From assembly GCF_003334385.1 (NCBI RefSeq), contig NZ_QOWN01000003.1: a stretch of DNA of 64,000 nucleotides; one strand, 5' to 3'. Origin of the DNA: Escherichia coli. GTDB lineage: Bacteria > Pseudomonadota > Gammaproteobacteria > Enterobacterales > Enterobacteriaceae. Made by a program: the position numbers and the translations under genes. The notes beneath the pieces were generated by a model that saw only the letters and a list, made by a program, of their open reading frames with translations, was not told the DNA's origin and did no database searches. Positions 3,533-64,000 of this stretch are shown one piece after another. The stretch's first letter is position 1, and the number at the start of each line of letters is the position of its first letter.

Positions 3533-4297
3533 TCAGTTCAGGGCTTTCTTCAGATGTTCCGCCAGCTCGGCAATGGCCTCCGGCGAATCGTTATCGATAA
3601 TGATGTGCTTACGTTCTGTTTGCGGCGGTACGCGAATGCCGACCAGTTCAGCAAGTGGCGCGCTCTGGCTCCAGTCAATATCACTTGCCTGCCACTGATT
3701 TACCGGTTTTTTACCCGCGCCGAGAATGGCTTTCATCGAAGGAATGCGTGGCACGTTAATATCGGAGGTGACGCAGAGCACGGCTGGAACAGAGAGTTCA
3801 ATAACTTCAACATCATCTTCAAGCGTGCGTTCAATCACCAGTGTATTGCCCTGACGCTGAATAGCACTCACTGCATTAATCACCGGAAGTTGCAGAATTT
3901 CTCCGACCAGCAAGCCAACCTGCTGGGCATAAAGGTCGCCGGAACCTTCACCAAAGATCAGTAAATCGAAGCCGATCTTTTCAATTGCTGCCGCCAGCGC
4001 TTTTGCGGTATCGAGAGGCAGTGCATGTTCAAGTTGCGCATCCTGCACCAAATACAGGCTGTGCGGCCCGCGGGATAGCACGTCTTTGCGCACTTTCGAG
4101 TTCTGCAACAATGAGCCGCCAACGGTCAGCGCGGCTATCTCATCGTCATCTGTTGCGAGCTGGCTTGCAGCTTCAATGGCATTGAGATCGAACTGGCTGA
4201 TTTTGGCGTCGGCATTGTCGAAATTCAGGGTGTATTCTGGAGTGACAACAATGTCCTGTTCTTCAGGCACCAGCTTAAAGCAGGTTATTATTTTCAT
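3533..4297 (-). CDS. ydiQ: electron transfer flavoprotein, beta-type subunit (FixA-like)
   Basis: ORF track gives 3533..4396; likely start is the internal ATG at 4295-4297 (MKIITCFKLVPEEQD...), preceded by a Shine-Dalgarno-like AGGAGA, giving about 254 aa. Confidence 0.8.
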   Translation of the reverse strand: MKIITCFKLVPEEQDIVVTPEYTLNFDNADAKISQFDLNAIEAASQLATDDDEIAALTVGGSLLQNSKVRKDVLSRGPHSLYLVQDAQLEHALPLDTAKALAAAIEKIGFDLLIFGEGSGDLYAQQVGLLVGEILQLPVINAVSAIQRQGNTLVIERTLEDDVEVIELSVPAVLCVTSDINVPRIPSMKAILGAGKKPVNQWQASDIDWSQSAPLAELVGIRVPPQTERKHIIIDNDSPEAIAELAEHLKKALN

Positions 4298-13299: not shown

Positions 13300-13436
13300 C
13301 GTGTAATGGCTGCATGAAATAAACAATAAAATATAAATAACATTATCAGCCTGCTGACGGCTTGAAGAGAGTCACAGTATCTTGTGCAACATTATTGGAA
13401 AGAGTGAGGGGCGAGGTAGCGAAGCGGAAAAATGTT

Positions 13437-13542
13437 AAAAAAAAGCCCATCGTGGGAGATGGGCAAAGACTACACACAGCAATTCGTTGTTTCACTCAGG
13501 GGATTTCCATGCTTATAAATCAATATGTTGATTTATAACCGT
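13437..13542 (-). ncRNA. rprA: RprA small regulatory RNA (RpoS translational activator)
   Basis: Reverse complement reads ACGGTTATAAATCAACATATTGATTTATAAGCATGGAAATCCCC...CCCATCTCCCACGATGGGC followed by a T-run (terminator hairpin); matches RprA as recalled, between ydiL and ydiK. Confidence 0.85.
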
Positions 13543-18980: not shown

Positions 18981-19149
18981 TCCTGACTTAATGCCGCAAG
19001 TTCGCCAAATCGACCTGGATTAACCTCCGTCCAGGTTCGATGACCTTCTTAATACTGCTTATCTACCGCCTGATATTGTTCAAAAATAATACTAATCGCA
19101 GTTTGTGTTAAAACGGCGGGTTAGCTTTATGAGATTATTCTTATCGCCC

Positions 19150-19246
19150 CTTCAAGAGCTAAGCCACTGAGAGTGCCGGAGATAAGCGCCGGATGGGGTA
19201 GAAACCCTTAAGCCTGTGTCGCACAGACTTAAGGGTTTTCTTATTT
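19150..19246 (+). ncRNA. putative small RNA or terminator structure in the ydiH-sufA spacer (position consistent with RydB)
   Basis: Long imperfect hairpin AAACCCTTAAG...CTTAAGGGTTT (19202-19238) followed by a T-rich tract on the plus strand, about 220 nt from the ydiH stop. The boundaries are approximate, and the strand is inferred only from the terminator. Confidence 0.3.
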
Positions 19247-36908: not shown

Positions 36909-37214
36909 TCAGGCGAGTTTTGCCTGATTGATTTGACTAAGTGGCTCATTGACATCGAAAACTTTGGCGACAACTTCCTCAACGCCGAGATTTTTCAGTC
37001 GGGCAGTATGTTTTTCCAGATAGGCAAGGGCGCTTTTTTCATCAGTGAAAAGGTAGATCCCACCGGCTTCGTGGTTCTTTTCACTTTCTGTCCATACCTT
37101 CCACAGAAAACCAGGTTCCTGATTAATCGACTCAGCAAGTGGTTTAAGCTGCTCAGCCATTGCGTCGCCAAATGGGCCATTAAAAGCAAAATGAAGTTGT
37201 AACAAAGTTGCCAT
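36909..37214 (-). CDS. ydhR: small putative monooxygenase-like protein
   Basis: 101-aa ORF next to the tRNA-Val pair. Confidence 0.75.
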
Positions 37215-37321
37215 AGCGATTCTCCTTCTGATAACGCATACGAAGACAGTGTAAATCTTTTAACGTATTGGATACAGAGAAGAAACAGAGGGAAAAAGGA
37301 GAAGACCAGATTAAGAAAATC

Positions 37322-37398
37322 TGGTGCGTCCGAGTGGACTCGAACCACCGACCCCCACCATGTCAAGGTGGTGCTCTAACCAACTGAGCTACGGACGC
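37322..37398 (-). tRNA. valW: tRNA-Val (GAC)
   Basis: Reverse complement reads GCGTCCGTAGCTCAGTTGGTTAGAGCACCACCTTGACATGGTGGGGGTCGGTGGTTCGAGTCCACTCGGACGCACCA: cloverleaf-compatible, GAC anticodon, 3' CCA. Confidence 0.93.
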
Positions 37399-37402
37399 AG
37401 GA

Positions 37403-37479
37403 TGGTGCGTTCAATTGGACTCGAACCAACGACCCCCACCATGTCAAGGTGGTGCTCTAACCAACTGAGCTATGAACGC
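37403..37479 (-). tRNA. valV: tRNA-Val (GAC)
   Basis: Reverse complement reads GCGTTCATAGCTCAGTTGGTTAGAGCACCACCTTGACATGGTGGGGGTCGTTGGTTCGAGTCCAATTGAACGCACCA; tandem copy 4 nt from valW. Confidence 0.93.
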
Positions 37480-46070: not shown

Positions 46071-46114
46071 TCCATTTCACTCCAGACCCTAACTTCAGCT
46101 CCTGCAAAATCGCA

Positions 46115-46130
46115 AGGTAAACGTTTGCCT
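46115..46130. promoter_or_regulatory. PUR-box-like operator in the purR leader
   Basis: AGGTAAACGTTTGCCT matches the PurR operator consensus ACGCAAACGTTTGCGT at 13 of 16 positions, about 45-60 bp upstream of the purR start codon. Confidence 0.5.
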
Positions 46131-46368
46131 TTACACACCTTACGCACAACAAAAGTGTTGCGGTACGCCGGAAAAACGACACGGAGCGTCAGGAAGGGGT
46201 CAATGGCCAGTACGCAAATAGTGTAAGCGTGGAATTTTGGCCGATCTTGACGAAAAGGGGAAGTGGTAAAAACACTTATCATTATAAATGACGGGAGATT
46301 TTTTCATCACAGTGTGTAAAAATGCGTAATATCACTTTTTGTGTGGTAATAAAAAAGGAGAAAACTTG

Positions 46369-46458
46369 ATGAGCACCGACCTTAAATTTTCACTGGTAAC
46401 AACGATTATCGTCCTCGGTTTGATCGTAGCCGTGGGTTTGACTGCCGCGCTGCACTGA
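46369..46458 (+). CDS. ynhF: 29-aa single-TM small membrane protein
   Basis: Not in the ORF track. ATG at 46369 preceded by Shine-Dalgarno AAGGAG (46355-46360); encodes MSTDLKFSLVTTIIVLGLIVAVGLTAALH; a stem-loop follows the stop. Matches the small protein YnhF as recalled. Confidence 0.6.
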   Translation: MSTDLKFSLVTTIIVLGLIVAVGLTAALH

Positions 46459-46623
46459 TTTCCTCTCGAGGGAGCGCGTTCTCCCTCGCATCTCCTTCCT
46501 GTTTGTTAGCAAAATGGCAAAAGTGTTTTCTCTTTTTGTTATTTTCATTTTTTTGTGATTGCTGTCATGCTTTCGCCACTTTAATGAATATCGCGTAATG
46601 ACGCGAAGAGGTGGAGATAAGGC

Positions 46624-59330: not shown

Positions 59331-59852
59331 ATGAAACGTTTTAGTCTGGCTATTCTGGCGCTGGTTGTTGCAACCGGCGCACAAGCTGCCAGTGAAAAAG
59401 TCGAGATGAACCTCGTCACGTCGCAAGGGGTAGGGCAGTCAATTGGTAGCGTCACCATTACTGAAACCGATAAAGGTCTGGAGTTTTCGCCCGATCTGAA
59501 AGCATTACCCCCCGGTGAACATGGCTTCCATATTCATGCCAAAGGAAGCTGCCAGCCAGCCACCAAAGATGGCAAAGCCAGCGCCGCGGAATCCGCAGGC
59601 GGGCATCTTGATCCACAAAATACCGGTAAACATGAAGGGCCAGAAGGTGCCGGGCATTTAGGCGATCTGCCTGCACTGGTCGTCAATAATGACGGCAAAG
59701 CTACCGATGCCGTCATCGCGCCTCGTCTGAAATCACTGGATGAAATCAAAGACAAAGCGCTGATGGTCCACGTTGGCGGCGATAATATGTCCGATCAACC
59801 TAAACCGCTGGGCGGTGGCGGTGAACGCTATGCCTGTGGTGTAATTAAGTAA
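59331..59852 (+). CDS. sodC: periplasmic Cu/Zn superoxide dismutase
   Basis: ORF track 59280..59852; start taken at ATG 59331 (MKRFSLAILALVVATGAQA signal peptide), about 173 aa; His-rich metal-binding motifs. Confidence 0.9.
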   Translation: MKRFSLAILALVVATGAQAASEKVEMNLVTSQGVGQSIGSVTITETDKGLEFSPDLKALPPGEHGFHIHAKGSCQPATKDGKASAAESAGGHLDPQNTGKHEGPEGAGHLGDLPALVVNNDGKATDAVIAPRLKSLDEIKDKALMVHVGGDNMSDQPKPLGGGGERYACGVIK

Positions 59853-61865
59853 TTAAGAGGCCAGCGTACCTTGCGGTGGTGCTTGCTCAAGTTGCGAAAG
59901 CGAGCAGTACAGCCGCCAGACAATTGCCGCCAGCTCACGGGCGGCAGGTTGATGATGACGGGCAAGGCTGTCGCAAATCCGCTGTAATTCTTCAAGTGTG
60001 GCCGCCAGTGATTTTTGCTGAACGCCACGCTCACTCATCACTCCCCGCAACAGTGAAATACAGTTATCCCGTACTCGCGATAACGGATCGGAACGCGATT
60101 CCCAGTCGCGCAATTGCCAGACAACATGAGAACAGTTCAGCAGCACTACACCCCAGCGTAATAACCAACGGCGAGCCAGCGCATCCTGGCTGTTACTCAA
60201 CTGACTGACGTGATGATAAGTGAGCGATTCAAATTCGCTTTCACTCAGTGTTGGATGGCGGCTTAGCTGATCGACAAAATCCCGGCGCAGCGCGCGAATA
60301 TGGCGGCGGCTTTTACGAGCATCCGATCCTGGACGCAGAATGGCGAACTCTAACCACGCCAACGCGACGCCAACGATTTTTGCCAGATTCTCGTTAAGAA
60401 AATCAGCAAAATCATACACCGGGGGATTAGTGACAGCGATAAAAGAACCCATAAAAACAATCAGTTGCCCCCACAATGCGGCAAATTTTGGCATCTGCAA
60501 TTTAAGAAGCTGCATTGTCGCCAGCAGTGGAAAGAGAAACAGTAAAAATTGCCACAGATCGCTAATCTGGACCATCAGACCAAATTTGACCACAAAGCTG
60601 AATAGCGAAAGTAACACCAGCGTGCGCATCAGAAGTGACAACGACTTAAACGGTGCTGCGACGGCGGAGTAGAGTACGCAGCTAATTGCTGCCAGCGTTA
60701 ATGCATTGGCACCGGCATCCCATTGCGAAGCAATACTCCATGCGCCAATCATCATCAACGTACAAAATGTACGCAGCCCGCTCCACATAGCTTCGGCGTT
60801 ATCGGTATGACGAGCCAGGCCGGATGTCCGTGGGAGTCTGGTATGATCATCTACACCGCTTTGCAGACGATGTAATTCCTGACTACTTTGCAGATAAAGG
60901 CGGCAAAAATAACGTAGTCGCTGCCAGAAGGCGACGTGCCGATAGTCGGCGACGTTGGTCGGGCGTAGCGGGGCGATAATACGTGCGACGGTGTAAACAT
61001 CTGTTTGCGAACTGGCGAGCGCCGTCAGCAACTGTTCGAGAATTTCTCGTGTGGCACCTGGCGGTGAGGGCCAGTTGAGCAACATACGTCGCAGGCTGGA
61101 GATGACACTGGTCATACGTAATTGCTGGTGGAGCAGCGCATTAAGGCGCGCGTTTTGCTGGCGAAAACGATAGTGGCTCCAGAAAGCCTGGATACGCAGC
61201 AAATTCATGGTCAGTATCTGCCCAATCACCCCTTCATGTGCTGCACGAATGGCATCGGTTGTTTCAGGCTGCCAGAGTAAACTGGCATGTTCCAGTAATC
61301 GGGCGTGCATGTTTTTCAATGCGGTTAAAAGGGCAGTAGCATCGGAACTGCTCGGCAGGATCATCATCATCATGCCGCCGCACAAAATACCGACTATTAC
61401 CTCGCAAACGCGCGCCTGAGCGATATCCCACAGCTGGCTGGCCTCAGTAATATTAACCATCGGAAAGGCGATGATGGCAGCCGTGTAGCCCGCCAGTTGA
61501 AATGCATACGCGACGTTATTCGTGAAGTGCGCACAGGCCCAGGTACAAAAGCCAAGCCACGCCGACATGCTCAATAGAAAAAACCACGGCTCATTGAGCG
61601 TATGCCCGGCAAGAAGCAGTGCCGCAATGGCTCCGAGCAAACTGCCAGCGATGCGTCCGAGGCTTTTGCTGATAACACCGCCAACGGTGGGAAAGCTAAC
61701 CACTGCAGCCGAGGTCATCGCCCAATAGGGTTCATCCAGATTTAAATAATAGGCAACCGTCAGCGCCAGACACATGGCAATGGTATTGCGTAACGCATAA
61801 CGCCATTGCGCCAGCGTGGCCCTGAACCAGGGCAAATTGCGCAAGGACCATGACGATGCGTTCAT
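59853..61865 (-). CDS. ydhK: FUSC-family inner-membrane exporter-like protein
   Basis: 670-aa polytopic ORF; stop codon directly abuts the sodC stop. Confidence 0.82.
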
Positions 61866-62722
61866 TATTGACCTACGGCAATGCTACAGGTGGTGCCCGA
61901 CACCAACGTGACATCGCCTGGGACTTTATCCAGCGCAAAGCGGACGGGAACGCGTTGGGCGAGTCGAACCCAGGGGACGTTAGGTTTAACATCCGGAATA
62001 AGGCTTGAGTCACTTTCAACGCTCTGATCATAAATCGCCCGACCGATACTGGAAACGTGACCCTGTAACGTTTTGTTATCACTATAGAGGGTAATTTGTG
62101 CTGGTGCACCTTCGCGGATATGGCGCAACTTGGTTTCTTCAAAATAACCAATGACGTAAAACGAGTGGCTGTCGACAAGGGCAAACAGCGGTTTCCCGGT
62201 ATCAGCGTAATCGCCGATGCGGGTAGTAAGGTTAGTCACCCATCCACTCACCGGGGCGCGAATTTCCGTTTGCGCCAGTTGCCATTGTGCCTGTTTCAGC
62301 GTCGCCTGTGCGGCATCAACACTGGCCTGCATCGCTTTAACATTGAGGTTAGCGGTATCGAGTTCTTCGGCAGAAATAAAATTTTGTGAGAGATGACGAC
62401 GACGATTCGCTTCGTTATTGGCTTTTGCGAGGTCAGATTGCGCTTTCGCCAGCTGAGCCTGTGCGTTCAGCTCGGCGATCTGAAAGGGCGTTTTATCGAT
62501 CGTGAGCAGAAGATCCCCCGCGTTAACCAGCTGGTTGTCTTTTATATTCAGCTCAACAATACGTCCCGACACCTGTGGGGTGATAGAAACCTGTTCTGCG
62601 CGTATTTTCCCGTCGCGTGTCCACGGAGATTGCATGTAATAATTCCACAGCCACCATCCGGCAAGAACCGCAACTACCGCTACAATGATTGTTGAGAAAT
62701 ACTTAATTGTTTTAATTGACAT
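61865..62722 (-). CDS. ydhJ: HlyD-family membrane-fusion (periplasmic adaptor) protein
   Basis: ORF track 61865..62764; start taken at ATG 62720-62722 ([14 protein letters not shown]...), about 285 aa; N-terminal TM segment. Confidence 0.8.
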
Positions 62723-62724
62723 AG

Positions 62725-62961
62725 TTACCACGCAATCAGTATTGCCAGAGCAAGGCAAACGCAAATCGCAAACAGCGATAAATCCATTAACAAGGGATGC
62801 CAGATGTCACCGGCGTAGATCCAGCCACGAAGCAGGCGGTGTACGACAAGCCAGATGACGAATCCAAACGCGAATGCTTTGAAAAACGGAGGAAAGTAGA
62901 CGGACGCACCGAACACCAGATCTTGTAAGGGCAATCCTGTTGCATTGAGCATAAACTTCAC
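62725..62961 (-). CDS. ydhI: small membrane protein (DUF1656)
   Basis: 78-aa hydrophobic ORF immediately upstream of ydhJ. Confidence 0.75.
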
Positions 62962-63161
62962 AAAGTAGATTCCTTTACGACCGAATATATTGCGTTAGAT
63001 TAATAAATATTCTTTAAGTGCGAAAAATTTACGCGCAATTTCTGAAAAATATGTCTGACGGTAACCAAATGCAGCAATACATTTGTTTTAGCAATACAAT
63101 TGCTGCACACTATTCTAAAAGCCGCATAATATCTTAGCAAGCTAATTATAAGGAGATGAAA

Positions 63162-63596
63162 TTGGAATCGCCACTAGGTTCTGATCTGGCACGGTTGGTG
63201 CGCATATGGCGTGCTCTGATAGACCATCGCCTGAAACCGCTGGAGTTAACACAAACCCATTGGGTTACGTTACACAATATCCATCAGTTACCTCCAGACC
63301 AGTCGCAAATTCAACTGGCAAAAGCGATTGGCATCGAGCAGCCATCACTGGTCCGTACTCTGGACCAACTGGAAGAAAAAGGGTTAATTTCGCGTCAAAC
63401 TTGTGCCAGCGATCGTCGGGCTAAACGTATTAAACTGACGGAAAAGGCAGAGCCGCTGATCAGCGAAATGGAAGCTGTTATTAACAAAACCCGCGCGGAA
63501 ATATTACATGGCATCTCCGCAGAGGAACTGGAGCAACTGATTACGCTCATCGCAAAACTTGAGCATAATATCATTGAGTTACAGGCCAAAGGGTGA
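63162..63596 (+). CDS. slyA: MarR-family transcriptional regulator SlyA
   Basis: ORF track starts at ATG 63156, which directly abuts the Shine-Dalgarno AAGGAG; the TTG at 63162 ([16 protein letters not shown]...) has normal spacing and gives 144 aa. Confidence 0.88.
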
Positions 63597-63606
63597 AATG
63601 AAGGGG

Positions 63607-63634
63607 GCGTGTGGTCAGTAACCTGACCACACGC
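63607..63634. terminator. hairpin between convergent slyA and slyB
   Basis: GCGTGTGGTCAG-TAAC-CTGACCACACGC, a perfect 12-bp stem. Confidence 0.55.
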
Positions 63635-63642
63635 AAACTTAT

Positions 63643-64000
63643 TTAGCGCGGAGAAACGGTCACCTGACTGCCATTGCTGGCCAGTACGACACGTTGGCCC
63701 GGAGAGAAACGAGTGTTGCCTTGTTTCTGTACCACCATGATGGTATTACCATCGTCTTTACGAATTTCCAGCTCGACACCCTGCGTTTTGTTCATTGCAC
63801 TCTGTACGCCCTGACCAGCTACGCCACCTGCAACAGCGCCTGCTGCAGTAGCCAGAGAACGCCCGGTTCCGCCACCAACAGTATTCCCCAGGAAACCACC
63901 AAGAACAGCACCGCCAATTGCACCGATAACGTTGGAATCATCACCGCCCTGAATCTGTACCGGACGTACGTTAACGATGGTGCCATAGCTGACATTCTGT
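63643..64000 (-). CDS. slyB: outer-membrane lipoprotein SlyB, C-terminal part only (gene runs off the window end)
   Basis: Minus-strand frame ending ...GQRVVLASNGSQVTVSPR with stop at 63643-63645; Gly-rich segment upstream; convergent with slyA. Confidence 0.75.
   Translation of the reverse strand, partial: QNVSYGTIVNVRPVQIQGGDDSNVIGAIGGAVLGGFLGNTVGGGTGRSLATAAGAVAGGVAGQGVQSAMNKTQGVELEIRKDDGNTIMVVQKQGNTRFSPGQRVVLASNGSQVTVSPR

Follow-up and report, generated by a model that had tools for sequence, protein, structure and literature searches.

The AaeXAB system of Escherichia coli (YhcRQP), which is devoted to the efflux of p-hydroxybenzoic acid (pHBA), is encoded by an operon in which a DUF1656 gene, an adaptor gene and a FUSC gene follow each other in the order X-A-B. 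The operon is flanked by a divergent gene for the LysR-type activator AaeR, and a gene for an outer-membrane factor is not linked to it. In a review of efflux systems, the outer-membrane partner is listed as 'AaeAB-?' and AaeAB is placed under the MFS heading of the table (PMC8277102). The same gene order and the same lack of a linked outer-membrane factor gene are found in the ydhIJK operon, which is located next to the regulator gene slyA in a stretch of 64,000 nucleotides from an E. coli chromosome (contig NZ_QOWN01000003.1 of assembly GCF_003334385.1; hereafter the window). The locus is the already known E. coli ydhIJK operon, a paralogue of aaeXAB. We consider it likely that ydhIJK encodes a SlyA-controlled module paralogous to AaeXAB that exports aromatic carboxylate anions. 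The operon and its regulator, the binding of SlyA, repression, the response to ligands and a fusaric acid phenotype have been published before. Here, we add that YdhK is internally duplicated and that the plant ALMT channels are its only relatives of solved structure.

Other described systems share parts of this arrangement. The tetrapartite fusaric-acid pumps of Burkholderia (fusA/Bucl8-fusCDE) are also built from FUSC, DUF1656 and adaptor proteins and also have a fusaric acid phenotype. Moreover, a homologous operon of the tetrapartite type carries a MarR gene (L008, see below; PMC8277102). However, the tetrapartite operons encode their own outer-membrane factor, which ydhIJK does not, and YdhK is only about 27% identical to the tetrapartite-type homologue. 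The regulatory logic is shared with marRAB and emrRAB/MprA, in which a MarR-fold regulator recognises a palindromic operator in the control region of a pump, regulates its own synthesis and is released by aromatic carboxylates such as salicylate. Unlike these regulators, SlyA acts pleiotropically, and mainly by countering the silencing of genes that H-NS represses. Furthermore, the linkage of slyA to ydhJK is found in a single cluster of the Enterobacterales and was lost on repeated occasions outside it (PMC6401476, Fig. 6), and the genes for the pump also occur without a MarR gene. Most of the checks that had been proposed in the initial annotation of this stretch are already published, mainly for relatives of E. 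coli (PMC6401476; PMC5797941; PMC12506092; bioRxiv 10.1101/845925). Since the papers on Salmonella, Klebsiella and E. coli cover most of these tests, the finding as such is correct but ordinary.

The gene coordinates were obtained by transferring the RefSeq annotation to the window and by checking it against a list of open reading frames (ORFs). Both sources agree on the following genes:

59853-61865, minus strand: ydhK, 670 aa, ATG start
61865-62722, minus strand: ydhJ, 285 aa, ATG start
62725-62961, minus strand: ydhI, 78 aa, GTG start
63162-63596, plus strand: slyA, 144 aa, TTG start

All four genes match annotated E. coli genes at 100%. Between positions 59700 and 63700, the window is identical to the chromosome of K-12 MG1655 at 3,999 of 4,001 positions, and three differences were found over 7.3 kb. 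The window is thus not identical to MG1655, and over 24 kb none of the complete genomes gave a perfect match. Every one of the 5,426 complete E. coli genomes that were searched gave a match to the region. Thus, the operon belongs to the core genome and does not reflect a chance arrangement of ORFs. In 5,410 of these genomes the match was a single, near-full-length place. The GC content of the four genes (48-53%) is close to that of the window (50.2%), and no Rfam family was matched within 59853-63596. The tight packing of the pump genes had been read correctly from the letters alone: at the junction CAA-TAATG-AAC, the TAA stop codon of ydhJ and the ATG start codon of ydhK share base 61865 (an overlap of 1 nt), and a gap of 2 nt lies between ydhI and ydhJ (TGG-TAA-CT-ATG). 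The motif AAAGGA at 62976-62971 is located 9 nt 5' of the GTG start codon of ydhI. With this layout, ydhI, ydhJ and ydhK are expected to be translationally coupled.

The assignment of YdhI as a small membrane protein stood up to inspection. The hydropathy profile shows two hydrophobic segments, as in a small two-helix membrane protein, and the sequence matches the Pfam family DUF1656 (E 1.8e-14). Moreover, the F-P and W-x-P-x-L residues were invariant in the six homologues that were compared. In every context examined, the DUF1656 gene was present together with the adaptor and FUSC genes, and transposon screens have revealed that DUF1656 genes share their fitness phenotypes with these neighbours (bioRxiv 10.1101/072470). 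YdhI would be an accessory subunit with two helices, and its gene stays together with the adaptor and FUSC genes even in distant bacteria. YdhJ, which had been called a membrane-fusion protein, matches HlyD_D23, Biotin_lipoyl_2 and HlyD_3, which cover the hairpin, lipoyl and barrel domains of such proteins, and it exceeds the cut-off of the generic RND_mfp model TIGR01730 (135 versus 94.9 bits). Its best match is AaeA (41% identity, E 5e-68), and its relatives in the PDB are EmrA, AcrA, MacA and similar adaptors. Judged by these matches, YdhJ is an AaeA-type periplasmic adaptor. A single N-terminal hydrophobic segment (about residues 8-30) would provide a one-helix membrane anchor from which the protein reaches into the periplasm.

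The three proteins are related to those of the AaeXAB system at different distances. AaeX was the sole NCBIfam match of YdhI (21.4 bits versus a cut-off of 82; 33% identity, E 1e-5) and AaeB that of YdhK (119.3 bits versus 870; 24% identity over 521 residues, E 3e-27), and YdhJ reached 243.4 bits with the AaeA model, below its cut-off of 400 bits. Because all three scores are below the equivalog cut-offs and the genome has its true aaeXAB operon at another place, beside the LysR-type gene aaeR, YdhI, YdhJ and YdhK are best regarded as paralogues rather than orthologues of AaeX, AaeA and AaeB. The homology of YdhIJK to AaeAB has also been pointed out by the authors of a Salmonella study, and according to the literature both systems handle aromatic carboxylates (PMC12506092). 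The substrates reported so far are fusaric acid for YdhIJK and, for AaeAB, pHBA together with two further aromatic carboxylates. The initial annotation had compared the layout with aaeXAB-type systems that have a local regulator. This resemblance holds for the pump trio but not for the type of regulator, because AaeR is a LysR-type protein whereas SlyA belongs to the MarR type.

YdhK had been described as an exporter-like protein of the FUSC family, and indeed residues 20-661 of its 670 residues align with positions 1-658 of the 660 positions of the Pfam model FUSC (PF04632; E 3.1e-139). To characterise its relatives, family representatives were collected at E <= 0.001 (3,083 clusters), of which 73 full-length members were aligned. 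Only a handful of the full-length relatives were more than 35% identical to YdhK, and the others were about 25-30% identical. A search of the PDB with the single YdhK sequence gave no more than a match to ALMT12 at E 0.39, and significance was reached only with the family profile, which matched ALMT channels exclusively (ALMT9, E 8.5e-11; ALMT1, E 1.5e-8; ALMT12, E 7e-7). The match spans the first membrane module and the beginning of the cytosolic helices. The structural comparison led to the same relatives. An AlphaFold model that was built from the family alignment (pLDDT 93.5, pTM 0.91) consists of two blocks of long helices, each of which is followed by a helical bundle. In a fold search with this model, each of the nine best PDB matches was to ALMT1 or ALMT9 (probability 1.00, target-normalised TM-score 0.42-0.53). 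The internal duplication became visible by comparing the two halves of the protein as profiles: hhalign aligned residues 17-218 with residues 356-557 over 190 columns (96% probability, E 4.4e-9), whereas BLASTP of the N-terminal half against the C-terminal half gave nothing significant. In the model and by these comparisons, YdhK is an internally duplicated FUSC protein with two tandem ALMT-like modules in one chain.

The plant ALMT/QUAC channels (ALMT1, ALMT9 and ALMT12), the only solved relatives of YdhK by profile and by fold, share with it a six-helix membrane module that is followed by a cytosolic helical domain. Carboxylate anions are the permeant species of the ALMT proteins, as proposed for YdhK. 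However, the ALMT proteins have a single module and are deposited as two-chain assemblies, whereas in YdhK two diverged modules are fused in one chain; moreover, YdhK, unlike the ALMT channels, has an adaptor and a small subunit as partners. YdhK would be located in the inner membrane, with each of its tandem modules resembling one plant ALMT subunit. Because two ALMT-like modules are present in one chain, a single YdhK chain probably provides the kind of anion pathway that in the ALMT channels is made up by two subunits. Transport would probably be driven by the membrane potential, which is negative inside, or by the proton-motive force.

The possibility that YdhK is an MFS or RND pump was also considered and ruled out. 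No MFS or RND match was obtained in the Pfam scan of YdhK, and in the fold search the chains of the MFS and of the RND superfamily (MmpL) remained at noise level (probability <=0.20, target-normalised TM-score <0.2).

A side observation concerns the ydhK allele of the window, which differs from that of K-12 MG1655 by two nonsynonymous changes, D492E and A506E, that are 41 bp apart (60390 and 60349). The last predicted membrane helix has residue 506 close to its cytoplasmic end, at a position that is occupied by Ala, Val or Met in the family. Among the 5,426 complete E. coli genomes, a 60-mer with both changes is matched exactly in only a single one, that of strain SCU-104. Nearly all of the 2,469 genomes that were detected with the 60-mer carry the reference allele with two mismatches, and there was no single-change intermediate among the matches listed.

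The gene neighbourhoods of YdhK relatives were compared at five loci (L003, L005, L006, L007 and L008), with a picture that agrees with the survey of slyA-ydhJK linkage in PMC6401476; for a further homologue, 35% identical, no contig was found:

L006, YdhK 62% identical: MarR gene (product 79% identical to SlyA) divergent from a DUF1656-adaptor-FUSC operon
L003 and L005, YdhK 50% identical: DUF1656-adaptor-FUSC trio without a MarR neighbour; in L005, a LysR gene downstream of the trio
L007, YdhK 28% identical: adaptor-FUSC genes and an uncalled ORF of 66 aa with DUF1656 motifs
L008, YdhK 27% identical: OEP-MarR-FUSC-DUF1656-adaptor, with its own outer-membrane factor

Since the trio recurs in these contexts while the regulator and the outer-membrane factor differ, the DUF1656/adaptor/FUSC trio appears from gene order to be the conserved unit. 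The DUF1656-like ORF of L007 (3906-4106, plus strand) lies 5' of the adaptor and FUSC genes, carries the motifs YFPPF and WHPxL, and was not called in the source assembly. Small DUF1656 genes are probably under-annotated.

The variable outer-membrane factor bears on the question of how far the substrate is carried. YdhIJK may not span the envelope at all, and YdhK could instead be an inner-membrane channel or uniporter that releases organic anions into the periplasm, with YdhJ and YdhI acting as modulating or gating subunits. The ALMT proteins, the only solved relatives, are indeed anion channels. Moreover, the annotation of the neighbouring genes shows no gene for an outer-membrane factor (OEP/TolC-like) in or beside the operon, a partner for the paralogue AaeAB is likewise listed as unknown (PMC8277102), and with 285 aa YdhJ is a short adaptor. 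However, YdhJ has retained the three domains (hairpin, lipoyl and barrel) on which the adaptors of tripartite pumps rely, the distant operon L008 has an OEP gene next to its MarR, FUSC, DUF1656 and adaptor genes, and the fusCDE genes of Burkholderia are linked to a TolC-like protein (PMC8277102). We therefore regard release into the periplasm as doubtful, though by no means far-fetched.

Experiments with Salmonella bear on the direction and the substrate of transport. The initial annotation had left the substrate blank, and it is at least partly known: Salmonella mutants lacking ydhIJK, alone or together with slyA, were delayed in growth in the presence of 30 ug/ml fusaric acid, whereas slyA mutants grew better in fusaric acid (PMC6401476). 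YdhIJK would export aromatic carboxylate anions, as has been shown with fusaric acid for the Salmonella orthologue, and the physiological substrate is probably an endogenous aromatic acid. It is very improbable that ydhIJK instead imports an aromatic acid or has a role other than transport. To our knowledge, membrane-fusion adaptors of the YdhJ type occur only in exporters. A DUF1656/adaptor/FUSC system of Cupriavidus is needed for growth on 4-hydroxybenzoate, for which uptake was named by the authors as one possible reason, but they also offered relief from toxicity as an explanation (10.1101/072470). Moreover, the fusaric acid sensitivity of the Salmonella ydhIJK mutants and the improved growth of the slyA mutant, in which the operon is derepressed, are at odds with import (PMC6401476).

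The gene slyA had been assigned to the MarR-type regulators, and its product is well above the cut-off of the NCBIfam SlyA equivalog model NF002926 (278.7 versus 120 bits). The control region that it shares with ydhI contains the following elements:

62962-63161, no strand: divergent ydhI-slyA control region, 200 bp, GC 31.5%
63134-63145, plus strand: exact SlyA consensus operator TTAGCAAGCTAA, 12/12 positions, the only such match in the 64-kb window
63088-63099, plus strand: secondary SlyA-like site TTAGCAATACAA, 9/12 positions
62995-63006, minus strand: secondary SlyA-like site, 9/12 positions
63112-63140, minus strand: candidate sigma-70 promoter of ydhI, -35 TTGCTA (63140-63135), 17-nt spacer, -10 TAGAAT (63117-63112)

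The divergent arrangement and the AT-richness of the spacer were as initially described, but the length that had been given (195 bp) was not: the spacer measures 200 bp to the annotated TTG start codon of slyA, or 194 bp to an in-frame ATG codon at 63156, two codons further 5'. The Shine-Dalgarno motif AAGGAG (63150-63155) abuts this ATG without any spacing and precedes the TTG by 6 nt. Moreover, in L006, whose SlyA is 79% identical, ATA replaces the ATG codon. Because of the Shine-Dalgarno spacing and the ATA codon of the relative, the sequences suggest that the TTG codon is the better-supported start. The transcription start of E. coli slyA was reportedly mapped by Corbett and co-workers in 2007.

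The SlyA consensus is that of Stapleton et al. (2002), cited here after PMC2156107. The exact box ends 16 nt 5' of the TTG start codon of slyA, and an identical TTAGCAAGCTAA box is present 20 nt 5' of slyA in L006, at a position equivalent to that in E. coli. Sites with at least 9 of 12 matching positions occur 43 times in the whole window, and three of them are located within the spacer of 200 bp. The candidate ydhI promoter, a pattern match only, is the sole consensus-grade minus-strand promoter match in the spacer. Its -35 region sits inside the exact SlyA box, and L006 keeps the -35 region and the key -10 positions. Because the operator covers the -35 region, this overlap predicts that SlyA represses ydhI by occlusion, provided that the candidate promoter is the one in use.

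Repression by SlyA is indeed observed in close relatives of E. coli. In vitro, the Salmonella protein represses ydhI about 19-fold and slyA about 5-fold, and repression is relieved by 2 mM salicylate; footprinting revealed a salicylate-sensitive SlyA contact near the -35 region of ydhI, which corresponds to a 9/12 site (PMC6401476). RNA sequencing has confirmed that SlyA represses ydhIJK in Salmonella, and the regulator was found to be inhibited by 4-hydroxybenzoate and 2,3-dihydroxybenzoate (PMC12506092). In Klebsiella, the loss of the slyA orthologue kvrA increased YdhJ 45- to over 100-fold (bioRxiv 10.1101/845925). In E. coli K-12, a gel shift experiment demonstrated that SlyA binds exactly the slyA-ydhI spacer of 200 bp, and the apparent Kd was about 50-100 nM across the promoters tested (PMC5797941). 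Taken over to E. coli, SlyA dimers would bind within the AT-rich spacer, also at the exact consensus box, and repress the two divergent promoters, and the binding of salicylate, benzoate, 4-hydroxybenzoate or 2,3-dihydroxybenzoate to SlyA would lead to its release. Repression, relief by ligands and protection against fusaric acid have been shown only in close relatives, and we infer them for E. coli.

Several points weigh against a SlyA-controlled exporter of aromatic carboxylates in E. coli. An outer-membrane factor gene is not linked to ydhIJK, which weakens the case for a full envelope-spanning duct. A sequence search of the PDB did not find a solved structure of any FUSC-family protein, and the channel-like mechanism suggested for YdhK derives from its homology to the ALMT channels. 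In the literature searched, an efflux phenotype of E. coli ydhIJK was not found, and the authors who studied the pump state that the physiological function of YdhIJK is still to be determined (PMC12506092). Furthermore, the overproduction of SlyA in E. coli K-12 increased the ydhIJK transcripts 2.2-fold, and the deletion of slyA had no detectable effect on them (PMC5797941). The sign of the SlyA effect in E. coli K-12 is thus opposite to that in Salmonella and Klebsiella.

The latter observation could mean that the operon of E. coli K-12 is mainly silenced by H-NS and that SlyA acts on it as a counter-silencer, that is as a net activator, following a logic unlike that of Salmonella and Klebsiella. 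The authors of the K-12 study, who saw the 2.2-fold increase, indeed concluded that SlyA activates the divergent promoters, and one dataset links ydhIJK to H-NS binding (PMC5797941). The low GC content of the spacer fits this idea, as does the strong divergence of the spacer between genera: compared with L006, only about 60 bp adjoining slyA are conserved (see also PMC6401476). However, the 2.2-fold effect, obtained with a multicopy plasmid, is a small one that may be indirect, close relatives display strong repression, and the exact operator covers the -35 region of the only consensus-grade promoter in the direction of ydhI, which is a geometry of repression. We consider a locus governed mainly by counter-silencing rather unlikely. 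Counter-silencing and repression are not mutually exclusive, and it is plausible that H-NS silences the AT-rich spacer and that overproduced SlyA counters this silencing, which would reconcile the sign of the E. coli data with repression by SlyA.

The exporter under SlyA control can also be pictured in a more specific form. YdhK may be a fused ALMT pseudo-dimer, and YdhIJK a relief valve that is driven by the membrane potential and drains the endogenous ligands of SlyA in a homeostatic loop. In this case, the system may not be a proton antiporter, and its substrates may be 4-hydroxybenzoate and 2,3-dihydroxybenzoate, the same compounds that switch SlyA off. This proposal is speculative and we would not expect it to hold in full. 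If it were true, the loop of YdhIJK and SlyA would set the intracellular level of the ligands and thereby tune the counter-silencing of virulence genes by SlyA.

Further observations concern the surroundings and the integrity of the operon. According to the RefSeq annotation, ydhIJK is flanked by sodC and ydhF on one side and by slyA and slyB on the other side. The genes sodC (plus strand) and ydhK (minus strand) converge at 59850-59855, where their two TAA stop codons abut with zero intergenic bases, and terminator scans of both strands gave no convincing terminator-like hairpin at this junction. Thus, each transcript must either end inside the other gene or run into it. The convergent genes slyA (ending at 63596) and slyB (ending at 63643) are separated by the following element, which is probably a shared bidirectional terminator of the two genes:

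63607-63634, plus strand: GC-rich hairpin with a stem of 12 bp

In two clinical E. coli isolates (NZ_CP091756.1 and NZ_CM128543.1), ydhJ is split by an IS3-family element and annotated as two fragments. Loss of the operon is thus possible without obvious harm, which fits its repeated loss in other Enterobacterales. Elsewhere in the window, Rfam matches above the gathering threshold were obtained for RprA, rydB, two tRNAs and STnc550, at 13435-13542 (minus strand), 19146-19206 (plus strand), 37198-37479 and 46071-46461 (plus strand). An antisense match to 'HPnc0260' beside the two tRNAs is probably a tRNA-antisense artefact.

For the biology of E. coli, it matters that the data from this organism and from Salmonella disagree on the sign of SlyA control over the same operon. 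For the family, the duplicated ALMT-like fold of YdhK provides a concrete and testable mechanistic hypothesis that would apply to FUSC proteins as a whole.

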